From IMG/VR virus record IMGVR_UViG_3300042446_001683: a stretch of DNA of 64,000 nt. One strand, written 5' to 3'. The position numbers and the translations under genes are program-made. The notes beneath the pieces were generated by a model that made no database searches, was not told the DNA's origin, and saw only the letters and a list, made by a program, of their open reading frames with translations. How positions within the stretch are numbered: position 1 is the first letter of the stretch; each line of letters starts with the position of its first letter. Positions 1 through 52,568 of the stretch are shown in pieces. The stretch is from a virus.

Positions 1-1317
1 ACAAGTGGTAACTCTTTATATGGTAACCGTAACCCATCTAGCGCTACTCCATTCGCTACAACTGCTGTATCTGGTGGTTTATATGGTGGTGGTCGTTTCG
101 CTTACTCTACTAACCAATTCTCAGCTTCTTATGCTTTAACTACTGGTTCAAACTTCACTCAATCTTATGCGGCTATTGCTAACTCAGTATGGGCTGCTTT
201 AGGATATGATTCTGATTTATCTGCTTCTGTAGCTTCTGGTAACATTTGGAAATTAACATTAGGTACTTTAGGTGCAGTTTCTGCTTCTTTAGATCCAGAT
301 GGAGTTAGAGCATTTACAGTTTCTGGATCAGGTAATACTACAAACTTACTTCCAGCTAATGTATTATCTAACTACACTACTTTTGATGGTACTACTTTAA
401 CATTCTATTTGACTGGTAGTACTCAAGATCCAGGAGGTGCTATTGCCCCAGTATTATTCTACAACAAGAGAACTACTGACAACACTCGTGGTGACTTTGA
501 AGATACAGCTGCTGGAACAACTTCAGTACCTAACTCTTTAAGTAACACTAGTATTGGATCAGCAATTCCTGAGATTAACATCTCTATGCAATCTCAAGCT
601 ATTACTGCTAAGACTAAAAAGTTAAAAGCAGCATGGACTCCAGAATTTGCACAGGATTTAAACGCTTACCAAAACTTGGATGCTGAAGCTGAATTGACTA
701 ACATTATGAGCGAGTACATCTCTTTAGAGATTGATCTTGAAATCTTAGACATGTTAATCGAGGATGTTCCTTCATCTAACACTGAGTACTGGTCAGCTGT
801 TAACAACGTTACTGCTACTGCTACATCTGCTCCAACCGCAAGTTTAGGTTTCTTCAATACTCAAGGTGCTTGGTTCCAAACTCTTGGTACTAAGATTAAC
901 AAATTGAGCAACAAGATTCACCAATTAACTCTTCGTGGTGGTGCTAACTTCTTAGTAGTATCTCCAACTATTTCAACTATCTTAGAGTCAATCCCAGGAT
1001 TCGCTGCTAACAGCAATGGCGCTGAAGATATGGAATATGCATTTGGTGTACAAAAAGCTGGTCAATTTAACAGCCGCTTTACTGTTTATAAGAATCCTTA
1101 CATGACAGAAAATACTATCTTAGTAGGTTTCCGTGGTAAGCAGTTCTTAGAGGCAGGTGCTGTATTTGCTCCATATATTCCGTTGATCATGACACCTCTT
1201 ATCTACGATCCAACTACCTTCACTCCACGTAAAGGATTGTTGACTCGTTTCGCTAAGAAGATGTTACGTCCTGAATTCTATGGTAAGATCTACATAGCTG
1301 GTTTGAACACCCTATAA
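1..1317 (+). CDS. Major capsid protein, T4 gp23-like (5'-truncated by window)
   Basis: Frame 1 is open from base 1 (TSGNSLYGNRNP...), so the TTG at 409 is not the start. gp23-like motifs: KTKKLKAAWTPEFAQDLNAY, AEAELTNIMSEYISLEIDLEIL, APYIPL, FTPRKGLLTR. Confidence 0.93.
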   Translation, partial: TSGNSLYGNRNPSSATPFATTAVSGGLYGGGRFAYSTNQFSASYALTTGSNFTQSYAAIANSVWAALGYDSDLSASVASGNIWKLTLGTLGAVSASLDPDGVRAFTVSGSGNTTNLLPANVLSNYTTFDGTTLTFYLTGSTQDPGGAIAPVLFYNKRTTDNTRGDFEDTAAGTTSVPNSLSNTSIGSAIPEINISMQSQAITAKTKKLKAAWTPEFAQDLNAYQNLDAEAELTNIMSEYISLEIDLEILDMLIEDVPSSNTEYWSAVNNVTATATSAPTASLGFFNTQGAWFQTLGTKINKLSNKIHQLTLRGGANFLVVSPTISTILESIPGFAANSNGAEDMEYAFGVQKAGQFNSRFTVYKNPYMTENTILVGFRGKQFLEAGAVFAPYIPLIMTPLIYDPTTFTPRKGLLTRFAKKMLRPEFYGKIYIAGLNTL

Positions 1318-5009: not shown

Positions 5010-7208
5010 ATGGCAGAAACTTTAGTATCACCAGGTGTATTAGCAAGAGAGAATGATAGTTCATTTGTTTCTCAAGGCCCAATAACCGCAGGAGCAGCTA
5101 TTATAGGTCCAACAGTGAAAGGACCAGTAGAATTACCTACAGCTGTTACTTCATACTCACAGTTTGAGCAAATATTCGGTTCATCATTTCAAAGTGGTAG
5201 TCCTGCTCAAACATATTCTTATTTCACTTCCATAGCAGCTTATAATTACTTTAATAACGGTGGAACATCATTATTAGTAGCTCGCGTAGTGACAGGATCA
5301 TATACCTCAGCTACAGCAAGTGCCGCTAACGGTGTAACTGGAGTAGGAGGAAATTATGCTTCAGCTTCATTTACAGTATTAGGCCCATACACAGCTTCTG
5401 GAGCCGGACAAGTTTTTGGTGGAACTATTAAAATAAATGTACCAACAAACATTTCTGGAGAAACTGTTAATTATTGGTTGCAACCATCATGGGGTGGATG
5501 GCAAGAATATGACGCTGGTTCAAATACTGGATTTGTTAGTATGTCAGCTAATCCATCAATAGATGAATGGGGTGGTAAAATGGCAAACTTCATTAATAGT
5601 TCTTCTATTAATAGTGTCACAAACGAAGTATATACTTTATTCTCAGCTTCATATAACACAGGTACAGATGTTCTTACTATATGGAGTAGAACTTCAAGTT
5701 CATTATTAAATGGTACTACTGTTAGATACGGATTTGCTCCATTTAATTACATTTACGCTGGAGCTTCTGATAGTGCTTTCTCAGCAAGTGTAAGCTTAGG
5801 AGGTGGATATGCTGGAGTATTATCAACTTCATTTACTTTAGAAACTTTATCTGAAGGTATTATAATGAATAGTGATAGTACACAAGACTCAGCTGGAGCA
5901 TTACTAAGTGGATCATCAGATAATATCCGATATCAAATTGTTAACTCTAATGCTACTTCAGGAACATTTGATTTATTAATACGTCAAGGTAATGATAACA
6001 CTTTAGAGCCAACAGTATTAGAAACATGGACTAATTTATCTTTAGATCCATTCTCTACAAACTATATATCTAAAGTAATAGGAGATCAATACTATACATT
6101 ACAAACTGATAGTGGAACAGGAACAAAATATTTACAATTAACTGGTAATTATCCGAACATATCAAAATATGTGAGAGTAGGTAGTGTTAACTATACAACA
6201 CCAAACTACTTCCAAAATAACGGAACATTCAACCCAGCATATACAGCTTCTTTACCTACTAATGCAAGTGGTGCATTTGGTGGAGCTTTAGGAGATATAA
6301 AAGCTGGAGCTAATTTTTATAATGCTGTTAATGCTAGTAATACTCAAGGTTTAGTAGGAGAAAATTATGATAACATGATTGCTTTATTAGCTAACCAAGA
6401 TGATTACAAGTATAATGTAATATTAACTCCTGGTTTGTATGATGCAGGTTATACTTCTCAAGTAACAAATATTATAACTAATACTCAAAACAGAGGAGAT
6501 GCTATTTATGTAATTGACCCAGTAGCTTATGGTGCAGGAAGTGTTACTACAGTTACAGCTCAAGCTGCTACTAGAAATACATCATATGCTGCTGAATACT
6601 GGCCATGGTGTCAAATTCAAGACCCAGCAACTGGACAAAACGTTTGGGTACCAGCTTCAACATTAATAGGTGGAGTTTATGCTTATAATGATAATGTTTC
6701 TGAGCCATGGTTCGCACCAGCAGGTATAAACAGAGGTGGATTATCTCAAGTAATTAGAGCTGAAAGACGTTTACCACAAGGTGATAGAGATACTTTATAT
6801 ACTGGAAAAGTAAACCCAATAGCTACATTCCCAGGAACTGGAGTAGTAGTATACGGACAAAAGACATTACAAACAAGAGCAAGTGCTTTAGATCGTGTAA
6901 ATGTTCGTCGTCTATTAATCGCTCTTAAGAACTATATCTCTCAAGTTGCTAATAACTTAGTATTTGAACAAAATACAGCTGCTACAAGAAATAACTTCTT
7001 AGCACAAGTTAACCCATACTTAGAGTCAGTTCAACAAAGACAAGGATTGTATGCTTTCCGAGTAATAATGGATGATAGTAATAATACTCCAACAGTAATT
7101 GATCAAAATCAAATGGTAGGACAAATTTATTTACAACCTACTAAAACTGCTGAATTTATTTACTTAGATTTCAATATTACACCAACTGGAGCAACTTTCC
7201 CAGCATAA
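5010..7208 (+). CDS. Tail sheath protein, gp18-like
   Basis: SPGVLAREND, WFAPAGINRG, GQKTLQ..SALDRVNVRRLL, PTKTAEFI. Confidence 0.95.
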   Translation: MAETLVSPGVLARENDSSFVSQGPITAGAAIIGPTVKGPVELPTAVTSYSQFEQIFGSSFQSGSPAQTYSYFTSIAAYNYFNNGGTSLLVARVVTGSYTSATASAANGVTGVGGNYASASFTVLGPYTASGAGQVFGGTIKINVPTNISGETVNYWLQPSWGGWQEYDAGSNTGFVSMSANPSIDEWGGKMANFINSSSINSVTNEVYTLFSASYNTGTDVLTIWSRTSSSLLNGTTVRYGFAPFNYIYAGASDSAFSASVSLGGGYAGVLSTSFTLETLSEGIIMNSDSTQDSAGALLSGSSDNIRYQIVNSNATSGTFDLLIRQGNDNTLEPTVLETWTNLSLDPFSTNYISKVIGDQYYTLQTDSGTGTKYLQLTGNYPNISKYVRVGSVNYTTPNYFQNNGTFNPAYTASLPTNASGAFGGALGDIKAGANFYNAVNASNTQGLVGENYDNMIALLANQDDYKYNVILTPGLYDAGYTSQVTNIITNTQNRGDAIYVIDPVAYGAGSVTTVTAQAATRNTSYAAEYWPWCQIQDPATGQNVWVPASTLIGGVYAYNDNVSEPWFAPAGINRGGLSQVIRAERRLPQGDRDTLYTGKVNPIATFPGTGVVVYGQKTLQTRASALDRVNVRRLLIALKNYISQVANNLVFEQNTAATRNNFLAQVNPYLESVQQRQGLYAFRVIMDDSNNTPTVIDQNQMVGQIYLQPTKTAEFIYLDFNITPTGATFPA

Positions 7209-33662: not shown

Positions 33663-33679
33663 TGTTATATTAAAATTAT

Positions 33680-36366: not shown

Positions 36367-36375
36367 ATATTTATA
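36367..36375 (+). promoter_or_regulatory. Putative late promoter motif ATATTTATA
   Basis: Upstream of the KQIIKEEI gene array. Confidence 0.6.
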
Positions 36376-36395
36376 GTAAATAATTCTTAATAAAA

Positions 36396-37067
36396 ATGAA
36401 ACTATCACAACTAAAACAAATCATCAAAGAAGAAATTCAAAATTCTTTAAAAGAAGCACCTGCTACCCCAGCATTAAAACCTTTAGATTTTACTAAACTT
36501 GATAATATATTTAATGTATTAACAACACCTCAACCAGGTTTAAGTAAAGAAGAGAGTGGTTATGAAACTATATCTGACGAAAAACCAGGCTCTTTTAAAT
36601 ATGTGACAAAGTTTCTTCAGAAATTAGCTGATGCTCATGCTAAAGGAGATAAAAAGTTTATAGATTTTATATCTAAAAATACAGATACTTTCCCACCTTC
36701 AGTAACAGTTGAGGATGATATTACTGATTATCTTAAAGATAAAAATTTAGCAAAACAGATTCAGAAGCTTAATGATATTTTTTATGGTATAGATTACAAT
36801 CTTTACGAAATTGAACCAGATGATGTTATAAGATCATATAATGAATTAGCGGATTTTGTTAATAAATTTGGTACAACCAAAGATGTAGGTTCTAACTCTA
36901 GAGATGATGCAAAAGCTTGGCTCGCGGCAAAGAACGCGCCAGCTAGCCCTGCGAAAACATACACTGGTAGTGACATGGCTAAATTAGTTAACTCACCAGA
37001 TTTTGATCAAAAATACACTATAACCACTAACGCTAAAGGTGAAATGGTTATTACTCCTAAGAAGTAA
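36396..37067 (+). CDS. Hypothetical protein with MKLSQLKQIIKEEI leader (candidate internal head protein)
   Basis: Shared 14-aa leader, then LKE-A. Confidence 0.6.
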   Translation: MKLSQLKQIIKEEIQNSLKEAPATPALKPLDFTKLDNIFNVLTTPQPGLSKEESGYETISDEKPGSFKYVTKFLQKLADAHAKGDKKFIDFISKNTDTFPPSVTVEDDITDYLKDKNLAKQIQKLNDIFYGIDYNLYEIEPDDVIRSYNELADFVNKFGTTKDVGSNSRDDAKAWLAAKNAPASPAKTYTGSDMAKLVNSPDFDQKYTITTNAKGEMVITPKK

Positions 37068-37073
37068 GTTGTT

Positions 37074-37424
37074 ATGAAACTATCTCAACTAAAACAAATC
37101 ATCAAAGAAGAAATTAAAGATTCTTTAAATGAAGCTAGTAATCTAGAATCTAAAGTAGCTGATTTATATGGATATGCTGGTGTAAAGACTCAGTATGATG
37201 ATGATATGGTTAAGAGATATGGTCAAAAAGTAATTGACCTAGCTGTAGAAATGGCTCCAAAAATATTAGCATATGAATCTGAACTTAAGAACATAGTTAA
37301 GCAAATGGAAGCATCACCAGAAGCAAAAATGCTGTTAAGAGCTATGTCAGAAGCTCGAGGATATAGTGGAGGCAGATCATATGTATCTTTAGGAGATTTA
37401 ATTAACCGATACACAAAAGACTAA
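37074..37424 (+). CDS. Hypothetical protein with MKLSQLKQIIKEEI leader
   Basis: Shared leader, then LNE-A. Confidence 0.6.
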   Translation: MKLSQLKQIIKEEIKDSLNEASNLESKVADLYGYAGVKTQYDDDMVKRYGQKVIDLAVEMAPKILAYESELKNIVKQMEASPEAKMLLRAMSEARGYSGGRSYVSLGDLINRYTKD

Positions 37425-37425
37425 T

Positions 37426-38049
37426 ATGAAACTATCACAACTTAAACAAATCATCAAAGAAGAGATAAACGAACTTGGATTTGACTACCCAGGTAAAGAA
37501 CAAACTCCTTCAGCATATCAAAACGGTATCATGGATACTTTAAAAGCTATACAACAATTAGGAGTAAATGTTGATGTAAATGCTGTAATGGATATACTTT
37601 ACCCAGATGATGAAAGTCCTAAAGATGAAAATCCAATAAATGAAAACTATGTGCTAGATGCTATGGGTACTGTGCTAGTAGGAGGTGTTGGATTAGTATT
37701 AGCAACAGCTGGTATTGTTGGTGGTACTGCTTTAGCTCTAGATAATATCCAATATGGTCCAATAGGTGATACTATTAGAAAATTAAAAAACAAAATAAGT
37801 GATCGTAAATTTAATAAGTATATTAGACCAATACTCCTTCGTTTTAAAAACGATCAAGTATTACAAGATATGTTTGAAAAATATAACTCAGCATCCTCCT
37901 TTGAATTTGATGCAATTAGAAAAGAAATTGCTGACTATATTGAAAGTAAACTTTCATCTAGAGAGTTAAAATATATTAAAGATGTTGTTGATTCATTACA
38001 TATGTCAGATCTATCTAAATCATTTAAACAAGAAGATGATATGATTTAA
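37426..38049 (+). CDS. Hypothetical protein with MKLSQLKQIIKEEI leader and hydrophobic segment
   Basis: Shared leader, INE-L; internal GTVLVGGVGLVLATAGIVGGTALAL. Confidence 0.6.
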   Translation: MKLSQLKQIIKEEINELGFDYPGKEQTPSAYQNGIMDTLKAIQQLGVNVDVNAVMDILYPDDESPKDENPINENYVLDAMGTVLVGGVGLVLATAGIVGGTALALDNIQYGPIGDTIRKLKNKISDRKFNKYIRPILLRFKNDQVLQDMFEKYNSASSFEFDAIRKEIADYIESKLSSRELKYIKDVVDSLHMSDLSKSFKQEDDMI

Positions 38050-38077: not shown

Positions 38078-38106
38078 TTGGCCTTCGGGCCATTCTTTGT
38101 TATATT
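38078..38106 (+). promoter_or_regulatory. Composite terminator hairpin / TTGGCC-N17-TATATT promoter
   Basis: TGGCC-TTCG-GGCCA + TTCTTT overlapping the -35 hexamer. Confidence 0.7.
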
Positions 38107-38112
38107 TAAGAT

Positions 38113-48404: not shown

Positions 48405-48449
48405 ATATTTATAATAAAGCTTGGCTACCCAAGCAAAAAATGTTATATT
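48405..48449 (+). promoter_or_regulatory. Tandem ATATTTATA (48405-48413) and TTGGCT-N17-TATATT (48421-48449) promoters
   Basis: Both motifs plus hairpin GCTTGG-CTAC-CCAAGC upstream of the groES-groEL unit. Confidence 0.65.
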
Positions 48450-48466
48450 ACAATAAAATAAAAGTT

Positions 48467-48781
48467 ATGGAAAAAAACGATTTATCGTCAGTTACACTGA
48501 TCAAAGATCCGTCAATCGAACCGTATTTCATCGGTCGCGACGCAAACAGCTACACAATTTATGAAACTGTCTACCCAGGTACAAATACTAAGGGAAGAGG
48601 TCGCAAAACACGGACTAAAGAAGCAGTCAAAGCCGTTTCATTCCATACTAACTTTGGCTCAGCATTAAGTTCAATTGCTAAGTTAAAAGTAGAAAAACGT
48701 CAAGTATATGATACTATTCATGAGTATATTACTGAATGGAGACGAGTAAAAGAAGAAATCAATCAAATAGTTAATTTTTAA
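48467..48781 (+). CDS. Hypothetical protein
   Basis: IKDPSIEPYFI; ATG 48467 preferred because 48440 lies inside the promoter. Confidence 0.6.
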   Translation: MEKNDLSSVTLIKDPSIEPYFIGRDANSYTIYETVYPGTNTKGRGRKTRTKEAVKAVSFHTNFGSALSSIAKLKVEKRQVYDTIHEYITEWRRVKEEINQIVNF

Positions 48782-48782
48782 T

Positions 48783-49085
48783 ATGAAACAGTTACAAGCA
48801 ACGTTTAACGCGGTTATCATTAAACCTCGTGAAGAAGAAGAAGGAATGTTCGGTTCTATCATTGTACCCGATATGGGTAAAGAAAAAGCGCTTATTGGTA
48901 CAATCGTATCTGTAGGCCCAGGTCAATCATCATACTCAGGAGCATTTATTCCTACAGTATTAGAAGTAGGAATGGAAGTAATGTTACCAAGTATGGGTCC
49001 AAACAAAATTGAATTGGAAGGACAAGAGTATTGGGTATGCCCTGAAAATCAAGTATTAGCAATCATTAAAACAACAGAACAATAA
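48783..49085 (+). CDS. groES: Co-chaperonin GroES
   Basis: GSIIVPD..KEK..GTIVSVGPG, VG..V, E..VLAII; adjacent to groEL. Confidence 0.88.
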   Translation: MKQLQATFNAVIIKPREEEEGMFGSIIVPDMGKEKALIGTIVSVGPGQSSYSGAFIPTVLEVGMEVMLPSMGPNKIELEGQEYWVCPENQVLAIIKTTEQ

Positions 49086-49086
49086 T

Positions 49087-50703
49087 ATGAGTAAAATTAT
49101 CGAATTCGGTCCTGAAGCAAGGAAAAAACTCGTAACTGGTATTGACAAACTAGCAAACGCAGTTACGTCTACATTAGGTCCAAATGGTCGTAATGTGGTT
49201 ATCGCAAATCAAAATGGTTACCCTCAATCAACAAAAGATGGTGTAACTGTAGCTAAAAACATTTCACTTGAAGATCCAATTGAAGAATTGGGTGTACAAC
49301 TTGTAAAACAAGCAGCTATTAAGACAGCTGAAGGAGCAGGTGATGGTACAACTACATCTACATTGTTGGCTCAAGAAATGGTTAAAGCCGGTTTAATGCA
49401 CTTAAACAATGGAGTAAATGCAGTATCTATCAAGCGTGATATTGATGCCGCAGTTAAAGATGTAGTTGCAGAATTACGCAAAGGTATTTCACAAGACATT
49501 AGCTCTGAAGATCAATTGAAACAAGTAGCTACTATTTCAGGTAATAATGATCCTGAAGTAGGAGAGTTGATTGCAACAGCAATGAATAAAGTAGGTCGTG
49601 AAGGAGTAGTTTACATTGAAGAATCTAAATCAGGTGAAACATATCTTGAAACAGTAGAAGGTATGCAATTTGATCGTGGTTACAAATCTCATTACTTTGT
49701 TACAGATAACAATACAATGAGTTGTACACTTGAGAATGCTATGATTTTGATTGCGGATAAGAAATTTACTTCAATTAAAGAATTATTACCACTATTAGAA
49801 AGTGTATCTTCACAAGGTAAATCATTACTTATTATTGCAGAAGACATTGATGGTGAAGCATTAGCTACACTTATTGTTAATAAAATGAGAGGCACAATTA
49901 AAGTAGCAGCAGTTAAAGCTCCTGACTTTGGTGATCGTAGAAAACTTATTTTAGATGATATTGCAATTTTAACAGGAGGTGAGGTATTTAGTACTGATAA
50001 GGGTATGAAATTAGATCGTTTTGATTCAAAATGGTTTGGTGAAGCCCGATTAGTTACAATTACAAAAGATGAAACAACAATCGTTGACGGAAGAGGAGAA
50101 TCTGAACGAATACAAGCACGTATTGAAGAGTTACAGCTCCAAATCGAAAAAGCAAAAACACCTTTCGAACAAGAAAAACTACAAGAAAGACTCGCGAAAT
50201 TTGTCGGAGGAGTAGCTATTGTTCATGTAGGTGGAAATACAGAAACTGAGGTCAAAGAAAAGAAAGACCGAGTTGATGATGCGCTTCAAGCAACTAAAGC
50301 CGCAATTGAAGAAGGTATTGTTCCTGGAGGTGGTGCTGCTTTATTATATGCTCGTGAAGCAATTAAGAATCGCAAATCAGTAGGTGGAGCAATTGTCTAT
50401 ACAGCATGTGGTGCTCCATTTATGAAAATTCTTACTAACGCTGGTTCTACAGAACAAGAGGCTTATTATTTGATTAATAAGTTAGGTGGTAGTGATAACT
50501 GGAAAGGATATAATCTATTAACTGAGAAATTCGTTAACATGAAAGACGCGGGTATTATTGATCCAACTAAAGTTACTCGTACTGCAATTGAGAACGCAGC
50601 ATCAGTAGCTGGAACAATTCTGTTAACAGAATGTACTGTCGTAGATAAGCCTGAAGATAAAAAACAGGATGATATGATGGGTGGAATGGGAGGTATGTTC
50701 TAA
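49087..50703 (+). CDS. groEL: Chaperonin GroEL
   Basis: TLGPNGRNV, TKDGVTVAK, GDGTTT, EGMQFDRGY, KAPDFGDRRK, GGM tail. Confidence 0.97.
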   Translation: MSKIIEFGPEARKKLVTGIDKLANAVTSTLGPNGRNVVIANQNGYPQSTKDGVTVAKNISLEDPIEELGVQLVKQAAIKTAEGAGDGTTTSTLLAQEMVKAGLMHLNNGVNAVSIKRDIDAAVKDVVAELRKGISQDISSEDQLKQVATISGNNDPEVGELIATAMNKVGREGVVYIEESKSGETYLETVEGMQFDRGYKSHYFVTDNNTMSCTLENAMILIADKKFTSIKELLPLLESVSSQGKSLLIIAEDIDGEALATLIVNKMRGTIKVAAVKAPDFGDRRKLILDDIAILTGGEVFSTDKGMKLDRFDSKWFGEARLVTITKDETTIVDGRGESERIQARIEELQLQIEKAKTPFEQEKLQERLAKFVGGVAIVHVGGNTETEVKEKKDRVDDALQATKAAIEEGIVPGGGAALLYAREAIKNRKSVGGAIVYTACGAPFMKILTNAGSTEQEAYYLINKLGGSDNWKGYNLLTEKFVNMKDAGIIDPTKVTRTAIENAASVAGTILLTECTVVDKPEDKKQDDMMGGMGGMF

Positions 50704-50975
50704 TGGCTACCGAAGTCAAAGAAGAATTAAAATTGATCGCTGAGCGATACCCACCGGGAGACCAGTGGGTATTGTTAAGTGATCCTAATCATGTGTATAA
50801 ATCATTAACAGAAGCATTAGAAGGTTATTTTGAAGAAGCTGGAGGACTATCATGTGATTTTAGATTGTCACCTATGAAAGGTAAATTATATGCTATTGAT
50901 AGTGTAGTGGTTGAAAAAGCAACACCACCCCCACCTCCTCCCCCAAAGAAATTTAACATGTACGGAGACTATTGA
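50703..50975 (+). CDS. Hypothetical protein with poly-Pro tract
   Basis: IAERYPPGDQW; TPPPPPPPKKFNMYGDY. Confidence 0.6.
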   Translation: MATEVKEELKLIAERYPPGDQWVLLSDPNHVYKSLTEALEGYFEEAGGLSCDFRLSPMKGKLYAIDSVVVEKATPPPPPPPKKFNMYGDY

Positions 50976-50983
50976 TATGTATA
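50975..50983 (+). promoter_or_regulatory. Variant late motif ATATGTATA
   Basis: One mismatch; upstream of two leader-bearing genes. Confidence 0.45.
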
Positions 50984-51003
50984 ATAAAAATAAAACTAAT
51001 ACT

Positions 51004-51243
51004 ATGAATAAAGAATTTCTTAAAATGCAAAAATTGGCTGGTTTAATTACTGAAAACCAGTATGACGAAGATGAATATCCTAGACTTGATCAAGAAACAT
51101 ACATGGAGTTTTTAAATGCATGTTTTGAGTGTTTCGATAATGGTGCTAATGCTTATGATGATAGCACTTGGACTGATGATGAAAGAGACTTAGCACAAAA
51201 TCTTGCTAATGTTATAGGAAGAGCTGGGATTGATATTTCTTAA
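51004..51243 (+). CDS. Small acidic protein with MQKLAGLITE leader (candidate internal head protein)
   Basis: ATG 51004: MNKEFLKMQKLAGLITE-NQ then an acidic body. Confidence 0.55.
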   Translation: MNKEFLKMQKLAGLITENQYDEDEYPRLDQETYMEFLNACFECFDNGANAYDDSTWTDDERDLAQNLANVIGRAGIDIS

Positions 51244-51245
51244 TT

Positions 51246-51560
51246 ATGAAAGTATCTGAATTAAAACAAATCATCAAAGAGGAAATCGTTAAAGCATTAG
51301 CTGAAAACGAAATTAAGCCAACCCATAGATCTAATGTAGATTGGTACTATGTTGAAGAATATAGTGACTACCCTGGACCTAAAGGTAGAACAGTCCCTAA
51401 CGCTAGGGAGTATGATGATCCTACTGGATATGATGGAACTGAACTCTATGTACCTGAAGGAACTGTAGGATATATCAAAGATGGTAAATTTATAGTAGCC
51501 TCAGGAAAAAGAGAAGGTAATGATGTTGAATACAAAGCTGAATACTTTGATAAAATATAA
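51246..51560 (+). CDS. Hypothetical protein with MKVSELKQIIKEEI leader
   Basis: Same leader family as 36396-38049. Confidence 0.6.
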   Translation: MKVSELKQIIKEEIVKALAENEIKPTHRSNVDWYYVEEYSDYPGPKGRTVPNAREYDDPTGYDGTELYVPEGTVGYIKDGKFIVASGKREGNDVEYKAEYFDKI

Positions 51561-51590: not shown

Positions 51591-51619
51591 TTGGCCTTCG
51601 GGCCATTTTTTATTATATT
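51591..51619 (+). promoter_or_regulatory. Composite terminator hairpin / TTGGCC-N17-TATATT promoter
   Basis: TGGCC-TTCG-GGCCA-TTTTTT; near-identical to 38078-38106. Confidence 0.72.
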
Positions 51620-51626
51620 TGGTTAT

Positions 51627-52568
51627 ATGAAAGAAAATAGTTTATTTGTAGAAAAATATAGATCTAAAACATTAGAAGACTATATTGGTAATGAGCAACT
51701 AAAATCTATTGTTGCCCAATATATTAAGAAAAATGATTTACAAAACTTACTATTGTATGGTACACCTGGAACAGGCAAAACAACATTAGCTAAATTAATT
51801 GTAAATAACTTTGATTGTGATTTCCTCTATATTAATGCTTCAGATGAAAGAGGTATTGATACAATTAGAGATAAAGTTCAAGGTTTTGCTTCAAGTGCTT
51901 CATTTAAACCAATTAAAATTATTATCTTAGATGAAGCTGATTTCTTAACTATACAAGCACAAGCATCACTTCGCAACATTATTGAGACATATTCTCGTAC
52001 TACTAGATTTATTTTAACATGTAATTATCTTGAACGTATTATTGACCCACTTCAATCACGTTGTCAAGTATTAAAAATTACACCTCCATCTAAAAAAGAA
52101 GTAGCAAAACATATTGCTGGTATTTTAGATAAAGAAGACATCCATTACACATTAGATGATCTAGCCCTAGTAGTTAATAAACATTACCCAGATGTTAGAA
52201 AAATACTTAATACTTGTCAAGTAAATACTGTTGATGGGGGTGCTAATGACTTATATCTTAAAATAGATAAAACAATATTATCATCAAACAGTTATAAAGA
52301 TGGAGTATTAAAGGAACTTAAATCACCAACTAAATCTAGTTTTAAAAACATCAGACAAATACTTGCTGATAGTAATTTGGATGATTTTGAAGAGATTTAT
52401 AGATTCCTATATGATAGTTTAGATGAGTATGGTAATAATGATCTATCAAAAGCAATGATTGTTATTGAAATAGAAAATTATATGTACCATGCTAACTTCA
52501 GAATTGATAAAGAAATTAATGTAATGGCTTTATTAGCCTCAATTTTAAAAATAATAAATAATAAATAA
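51627..52568 (+). CDS. Clamp loader ATPase subunit, gp44/RFC-like
   Basis: VEKYR, GTPGTGKT, NASDERGID, LDEAD, SRC; ATG 51627 preferred. Confidence 0.93.
   Translation: MKENSLFVEKYRSKTLEDYIGNEQLKSIVAQYIKKNDLQNLLLYGTPGTGKTTLAKLIVNNFDCDFLYINASDERGIDTIRDKVQGFASSASFKPIKIIILDEADFLTIQAQASLRNIIETYSRTTRFILTCNYLERIIDPLQSRCQVLKITPPSKKEVAKHIAGILDKEDIHYTLDDLALVVNKHYPDVRKILNTCQVNTVDGGANDLYLKIDKTILSSNSYKDGVLKELKSPTKSSFKNIRQILADSNLDDFEEIYRFLYDSLDEYGNNDLSKAMIVIEIENYMYHANFRIDKEINVMALLASILKIINNK

Follow-up and report, generated by a model that had tools for sequence, protein, structure and literature searches.

A portable N-terminal tag on unrelated small proteins of uncultured T4-like phages is a candidate capsid-targeting propeptide

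The viral record IMGVR_UViG_3300042446_001683 of IMG/VR was analysed over a stretch of 64,000 nucleotides (nt), here called the window, in which four genes encode small proteins that begin with the same short leader, or tag, and continue with unrelated bodies. We find that this tag is a portable protein-level module, confined to viruses, that is carried by T4-like myoviruses with a gp21-type S77 protease and lies behind a late-type motif. Our preferred reading, to which we assign a probability of roughly 0.6, is that the tag, with the consensus MK(K/L)S(E/Q)L(K/R)QIIKEEIxKxLxE over the N-terminal 14-20 residues, is a capsid-targeting propeptide. On every point that can be tested by sequence, it appears to resemble the capsid-targeting sequence (CTS) of phage T4. 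As a broader and decidedly tentative proposal, an abundant clade of aquatic T4-like phages, most of them uncultured, might load and inject hundreds of unrelated, fast-evolving proteins by means of interchangeable tags (MKKSELKQIIKEEI..LxE, F-x-K-MQKLAGLITE and MKYFKLFE..VNE).

Three of the four genes stand in tandem, on the plus strand like every gene of the window. Tag gene 1 (36396-37067; 223 amino acids (aa)) carries the tag in residues 1-20 (36396-36455), where it ends in LKE-A and is followed by a flexible linker and a folded helical body. Tag gene 2 (37074-37424; 116 aa), whose start lies 6 nt past the stop codon of tag gene 1, ends its tag in LNE-A and has orthologues in two other loci (L004 and L018). 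Tag gene 3 (37426-38049; 207 aa) has a 14-residue tag followed by INE-L, and a Gly-rich hydrophobic stretch whose most hydrophobic 19 residues are 80-98; proteins of this class, combining a tag with a hydrophobic stretch, also occur in two other sequences (G014 and G002) and in Flavobacterium phage immuto. Tag gene 4 (51246-51560, plus strand; 104 aa) encodes MKVSELKQIIKEEIVKALAE-N followed by a small beta domain; of the payload families, this one is kept most widely.

Tag genes 1-3 all start MKLSQLKQIIKEEI and tag gene 4 starts MKVSELKQIIKEEI, so that the pattern common to the four is MK(L/V)S(Q/E)LKQIIKEEI; a six-frame scan of the window finds no further copy. Over the first 42 nt, the tandem genes differ from one another at 1-4 positions and from the fourth gene at 5-8. 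Past residue 20, no significant similarity is detected among the four proteins, and the four payloads, searched together with two neighbouring proteins, have no match in Pfam or PHROG. Searches of the payloads and the tag against 50,697 phage records (tblastn and blastn) returned no relatives or noise only, and the 22-residue consensus returned none. The first-pass annotation of the window had described much of this arrangement, namely three tandem genes with a shared leader and LKE-A, LNE-A and INE-L sites, a fourth copy with LAE-N, complete divergence after the leader and a hydrophobic segment in one of the array proteins, and each of these elements holds. We note that a Sec or Tat signal peptide was considered and rejected: the first 14 residues have no more than two adjacent apolar residues and no hydrophobic core of seven or more, and 6 of the 14 are Lys or Glu.

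The tag is not peculiar to the window. A profile built from the first 30 residues of 28 copies and searched against 1.84 billion representative proteins of public metagenomes matches 1,071 clusters (50% identity) at E≤0.001. Degenerate DNA patterns for the peptide, run on IMG/VR and on prokaryote genomes, match 18 and then 100 IMG/VR stretches (118 in total) and none of 185,579 prokaryote genomes. Recurrence in 118 viral stretches and more than a thousand protein clusters excludes a chance origin of the tag. For the best 150 of the 1,071 profile matches, we counted positions, body groups and Pfam domains. The motif begins at residue 1 in 121 of them and among the first few residues in 20 more, with the consensus MKKSQLKQIIKEEIxKxLNE. 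With the tag masked, the bodies of 140 proteins fall into 107 groups without any BLAST link, 92 of them singletons, and the median whole-protein length is 104 aa. Complete relative genomes hold 1-10 tag genes each. The tag is thus far more widespread than the four copies noticed in the first-pass annotation.

The tag is under selection at the protein level. Among 195 distinct copies, gathered with patterns that are degenerate at synonymous sites, the codon third positions of the invariant residues I9, I10 and I14 have an entropy of 1.45-1.56 bits (maximum 1.58); it is because synonymous sites vary freely while the residues stay fixed that we place the selection on the peptide. Copies that encode the same peptide differ by 4.1 nt within a locus and by 4.6 nt between loci, and there is no sign that tag DNA is homogenised within genomes. 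The near-identical 5′ DNA in the window is therefore explained by conservation of the peptide together with A+T-rich codon use, and not by homogenisation. Consequently, given also that some tags lie inside open reading frames (ORFs), a start-codon or mRNA signal is ruled out as the main explanation.

A cleavage-type site closes the tag. The motif [LIVM]xE is found exactly at residues 18-20 in 116 of the 195 copies (59%) and somewhere in residues 14-30 in 178; the DNA search patterns did not include residues 15-20, so that the counts there are unbiased. An I-K-E at residues 10-12, which also fits the site rule, is invariant, partly as a result of the search patterns, which required these residues. 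Asn is the residue that most often follows the Glu, the others being A, E, D, S and G. In the capsid proteins of the clade that were read (69 of 69), a V-x-E stands directly after LENQAKQ, the next residue being T, Q, S, A or V, and T4 gp23 has an LTE-A, its maturation site, in its N-terminal region. A protease that tolerates a variable residue after Glu would fit the tags.

Both AlphaFold2 models position this site at the end of a helix running into coil. The model of tag gene 1 (predicted local distance difference test, pLDDT, 83) consists of a helix at residues 3-19, coil at 20-31 and a helical domain at 32-157 (pLDDT >90), and that of tag gene 4 (pLDDT 89) of a helix at residues 3-20 and then a small beta domain. 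Foldseek found no match at E≤0.001 for either model in the PDB, nor for the tag gene 1 model in BFVD, and the ESM Atlas gave no usable match. Weak SH3-like rows obtained for the tag gene 4 payload were set aside as no evidence.

The link between the tag and head assembly is supported only indirectly, by the S77 protease of carrier genomes, by placement of tag genes in the head modules of relatives, by the late-type motif and by the (L/I/V)xE site. All seven carrier genomes with a completeness of 90% or more have one Peptidase_S77 gene, as do 11 of 14 long carrier contigs, the three without it being 34-70% complete, and the clade S77 protease is 41% identical to gp21 of KVP40. In the closest capsid relative (L164; 75% capsid identity), the portal gene is followed by four other genes, and then come the protease (5380-5991), a tag gene (5994-6338, MKKSDLLRIIKEEITKVLTE-E), the scaffold and the capsid gene. 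Similarly, in the 293-kb G014, at least 10 tag genes flank the protease on either side within the interval from portal to scaffold. Most tag genes, in fact, are situated outside head modules. The late-type, promoter-like motif is the octamer TATTTATA, which has 19 copies in the window, 15 of them intergenic. These are followed by a gene start after 19-38 nt in 14 cases and after 92 nt in one, and in 11 cases the gene is a structural one. One copy (36368-36375, plus strand) is found 28 nt before tag gene 1, in keeping with the late motif that the first-pass annotation had seen ahead of the array. Elsewhere, the octamer occurs at most 60 nt upstream of 45 of the 195 tag genes.

Two side observations concern the head genes of the clade. 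The large terminase starts MSQDLKQIIKEEY/RDEY (L178 396; G002 29755), a partial look-alike of the tag with a weak profile score, and this likeness is probably due to chance. The G014 portal gene (L145 12827-16849) codes for 1,340 aa, roughly double the normal length, has Hint-like inserts and probably contains inteins.

A second tag brings in the scaffold. Directly before tag gene 4 lies a gene for a protein of 79 aa (51004-51243, plus strand) that begins with MNKEFLKMQKLAGLITE-N, a copy of the C-terminal tail of the scaffold, and then an I-T-E site. The N-terminal sequence M(N)KEFLKMQKLAGLITE(S/N)Q is likewise found on many small proteins of the clade. The motif F-x-[KR]-M-Q-[KR]-L-A-G-[LI] forms the extreme C-terminus of the clade scaffold proteins (...AFARMQRLAGLRK; e.g., L164 6543-7478), and of 59 ORFs with this scaffold-tail motif, 26 have it at most 30 residues from the ORF start and 25 at most 15 residues from the end. 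In one L146 ORF, tag 1 is immediately followed by tag 2. Full-text searches of the literature with the second-tag strings found no relevant paper. Scaffolding proteins such as P22 gp8 have a coat-binding tail at the C-terminus. The second tag, F-x-K/R-M-Q-K/R-L-A-G-L/I, matches the last residues of the clade scaffold; unlike such tails, it stands at the N-terminus of small proteins, ahead of a protease-type site. These sequences indicate that a scaffold motif has been taken over by at least one leader, and they suggest that cargo may reach the shell through the contact that the scaffold itself makes; here we infer that the scaffold tail binds the shell in this clade.

A third tag, MKYFKLFE(N/S)FVNE-A, heads six proteins with unrelated bodies in IMG/VR. 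Homologues of the tag gene 1 payload bear either tag 1 or this third tag, and their homology starts at the E-A junction (leader-swap rows P0166, P0167, P0170, P0172 and P0177; L247-L253). From this swap of leaders on one payload, together with the second tag, we conclude that leaders and bodies are exchanged as modules. Tags also recur within single proteins. In about a fifth of the best matches, a single reading frame contains two or three tag-payload units, and G014 has ORFs in which a folded-looking N-terminal part is followed by a tag and then by another body; such multi-unit or internal-tag ORFs (P0004, P0007, P0026, P0047 and P0085; L145 4378-5028 and 7491-8036) could be natural polyproteins or could have lost their stop codons. 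The modular leader-plus-payload arrangement proposed in the first-pass annotation is therefore strongly supported, by one tag on hundreds of unrelated bodies, by the leader swap at the xE-A junction and by tandem and internal tags.

Few payloads resemble known domains. Among the best 150 matches, one (P0068) joins the tag to an ART-PolyVal ADP-ribosyltransferase domain (45.8 bits, cut-off 31.2); six other families are found on seven members (DUF6576 twice, DUF5661 once and four weak single matches), and the remaining members have no Pfam match. The cluster members that were looked up are all metagenomic and all named 'hypothetical', and full-text literature searches found no relevant paper quoting the tag strings. 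Apart from the one ART-PolyVal payload, the anti-defence role that had been proposed for the payloads is speculation. In 28 of the 118 loci (loci L046-L144, e.g., L100 1158-2012), tag genes have a GIY-YIG-like gene at a distance of no more than 4 kb; the next neighbour family is present in 21. The GIY-YIG-like genes suggest that tag genes occupy variable regions visited by mobile endonucleases.

If the tag is a capsid-targeting propeptide, its amphipathic helix would dock the newly made protein to the scaffolding core during prohead assembly. The protease would then cut behind Glu20 in the L-x-E site, and possibly also behind Glu12 in I-K-E, freeing the payload inside the head, from where it would exit with the DNA and act early in the next cell. 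With payloads that are small and highly varied, the tag would let a phage lineage try many pre-made proteins.

The precedent invoked in the first-pass annotation, that of the T4 internal proteins, can be read from the T4 record. There, ipII and ipIII both start MKTYQEFIAE-A over 30 identical nt and ipI starts MKTFKEF...ITE-A, and all three are sited among non-structural genes, with segB in the same region. Ten residues of the T4 CTS suffice for targeting and are removed by gp21, and CTS loading has already been proposed as a general mechanism of T4-like phages (PMC9026906). Similarly to the T4 CTS, the tag is a short, amphipathic N-terminal peptide on otherwise unrelated small proteins, with an MK start and an (L/I)xE end. 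As with the T4 ip genes, tag genes form small arrays among non-structural genes and have near-identical 5′ DNA; the tag-carrying relatives encode a gp21-type protease, and the tagged ADP-ribosyltransferase would be a counterpart of the packaged T4 Alt. In contrast to the CTS, the tag spans 14-20 residues instead of 10-19 and usually has Asn, Ala, Asp, Ser or Gly after the Glu where the CTS has Ala. The scale also differs: T4 has three internal proteins and Alt, whereas here there are more than 1,000 clusters and 1-10 genes per genome, known from sequence alone. Homology between the tag and the T4 CTS (MKTYQEFIAE) was rejected, as there is no profile match and the two are alike only in their MK start and xE end.

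The internal-protein genes of T-even phages are variable and are said to keep CTS-like sequences (PMC3012670, PMC9026906). The same combination of a kept leader and an exchanged body is seen here, and the GIY-YIG-like neighbours recall segB near the T4 ip genes. Unlike in the T-even phages, exchange extends across a whole uncultured clade and includes leader swaps and fusions of two or three units.

Ejection proteins of giant phages have x-x-Glu sites of the motif (A/S/G)xE, and their propeptides are long and are not known to form a shared short tag. The tag system differs from that of phiKZ and SPN3US in its short common leader, and resembles it in having a related gp21-like protease and an xE-type site, with maturation here predicted from sequence. 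For such phages, PMC5694885 and PMC7411985 describe a bolus of ejection proteins that is cut by the prohead protease.

Several observations weigh against a capsid-targeting role. The tag profile has no match in T4, HTVC008M, P-SSM2, Syn9, Mel-JY01 or RM378, and immuto, the only cultured relative, has just two weak tag copies (immuto26A_176 and immuto26A_191), annotated as hypothetical; no virion proteome of any tag carrier was found. The site is missing from residues 18-20 in 41% of the copies and from the whole of residues 14-30 in 9%, and the T4 sites that we read have Ala after the Glu, compared to mostly Asn in the tags. The payloads have no basic bias in net charge, unlike T4 IPII and IPIII. 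Regarding the head, the S77 counts cover tag carriers alone; the protease gene of the window phage lies outside the window and is thus absent from the sequence read; and only 6 of 80 head-module loci have a profile match, one of these being a terminase N-terminus. An hhalign comparison with the N-terminal sequence of the scaffold (MNREMLKEAIAEAK) yielded E=0.89 for the tag, a likeness that is not significant and was discarded.

The tag could instead be a general docking helix for another hub, such as a chaperonin, the replisome, RNA polymerase or the membrane, with the proteins gathered in the infected cell and not packaged. A predicted 20-residue amphipathic helix on a flexible linker suits any protein-protein docking, and such a role would accommodate both the position of most tag genes outside head modules and the unit that tag gene 4 forms with GroES and GroEL. 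We nevertheless regard it as unlikely, as it leaves unexplained the (L/I/V)xE at the end of the helix, the co-occurrence with S77, the placement of tag genes in L164 and G014, the late-type motif and the scaffold-tail tag; moreover, GroEL is near tag genes in just 12 of the 118 loci. Another possibility, which we consider improbable, is that a dedicated modifying enzyme recognises the tag, as happens with the leader of a ribosomally synthesised and post-translationally modified peptide. The S77 protease would itself be such an enzyme in a sense. However, no enzyme family is regularly beside tag genes, even the GIY-YIG-like neighbour being present in just 28 of the 118 loci, and the payloads are predicted to be folded domains and not short peptides.

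Explanations that dispense with a common function of the peptide fare worse, and both a DNA-level signal and ordinary paralogy are effectively refuted. The conserved 5′ end might work as DNA or RNA, as a translation start enhancer, an RNA target or a recombination cassette, with the peptide a by-product; the few differences over 42 nt between the tandem copies, the occurrence of tandem tag duplications and the ability of T4-like phages to recombine at short homologies all speak for it. We consider this very improbable in view of the nearly free synonymous sites and fixed residues, the similar divergence within and between loci, the lack of conservation in the upstream DNA, the 147 of 195 copies without the late motif and the tags inside ORFs far from starts. 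A narrower version in the first-pass annotation, that the 5′ DNA serves as a recombination anchor for payload exchange, keeps weak support: the junction swaps and tag duplications agree with it, while the similar divergence of tag DNA within and between genomes (4.1 versus 4.6) does not. Least credible of all is that the four genes are ordinary paralogues that have diverged except at the N-terminus. Their tandem arrangement and similar small size would be expected of paralogues, but there is no full-length homology, the bodies being unrelated past residue 20 with predicted folds that differ (one helical, one beta), and neither the 107 unlinked groups among 140 bodies nor the one body with two different leaders is consistent with such an origin.

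Head cargo that is fired into the cell before gene expression is known for very few phages, and head-carried proteins such as T4 IPI and Alt decide early conflicts with host defences. The principle of the CTS is already known from T4; new here are a tag unrelated to the T4 CTS, the scale on which it occurs, the swapping of leaders and the second tag. If the broader proposal of loading and injection by interchangeable tags is correct, the injected proteome of a phage, including counter-defence or takeover effectors such as ADP-ribosyltransferases, would be predictable by tag alone. If the tag is a loading signal, more than 1,000 candidate cargo clusters in environmental phages would constitute a ready list for counter-defence screens, and foreign proteins could be packaged with a second natural tag. 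How cargo locates the prohead would be suggested by the scaffold-tail tag, provided that it is real.

The source phage is a distant T4-like myovirus, aquatic and uncultured, with a G+C content of 32% in the window. We call it T4-like because the first gene of the window, present with its 3′ part (1-1317, plus strand), encodes a major capsid protein of the gp23 type (phrog_138, 2e-50). The encoded protein is 53% identical to the capsid protein of immuto, the closest cultured phage, in which the head module runs from the gp20 portal through an S77 'prohead core protein serine protease' and an acidic protein at the scaffold position to gp23. Judging by the order of head modules in relatives, the protease gene of the window phage should sit upstream of base 1, beyond the window. 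The genes recognised in the window are those for the gp23-type capsid protein, PhoH, tail sheath, tail tube, baseplate hub, a gp32-like SSB, a UvsX-like recombinase, ribonucleotide reductase, a family-B DNA polymerase, GroES and GroEL, and a clamp loader.

The tag genes are found in two islands. The array closes with a terminator-like hairpin, TGGCCTTCGGGCCA plus a T-run (38079-38092, plus strand), and an identical element (51592-51605, plus strand) ends the second island before the clamp-loader gene. This second island is headed by another copy of TATTTATA (48406-48413, plus strand) and comprises, in order, an unknown gene, a phage GroES gene (48783-49085, plus strand; Cpn10, 7e-18), a phage GroEL gene (49087-50703, plus strand; Cpn60, 4e-66; phrog_5725), another unknown gene, the tag-2 gene and tag gene 4. 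As there is no intergenic gap of 15 nt or more in 48440-51560, GroES, GroEL and both tagged genes are presumed to belong to one late unit; T4 itself supplies only a GroES substitute, gp31. Because of the octamer in front and the common hairpin at the end, both islands look like late units placed among replication genes.

In both places (38079-38112 and 51592-51627), the hairpin is followed by a promoter-like TTATATT box, 11-14 nt before the following ATG. Similar TATATTA boxes are present ahead of several replication genes, at 33666, 43883, 47661 and 57794, and the boxes of both forms are probably of an early or middle promoter type. We note that the clamp-loader gene likely starts at the ATG at 51628 and not at the TTG at 51591.

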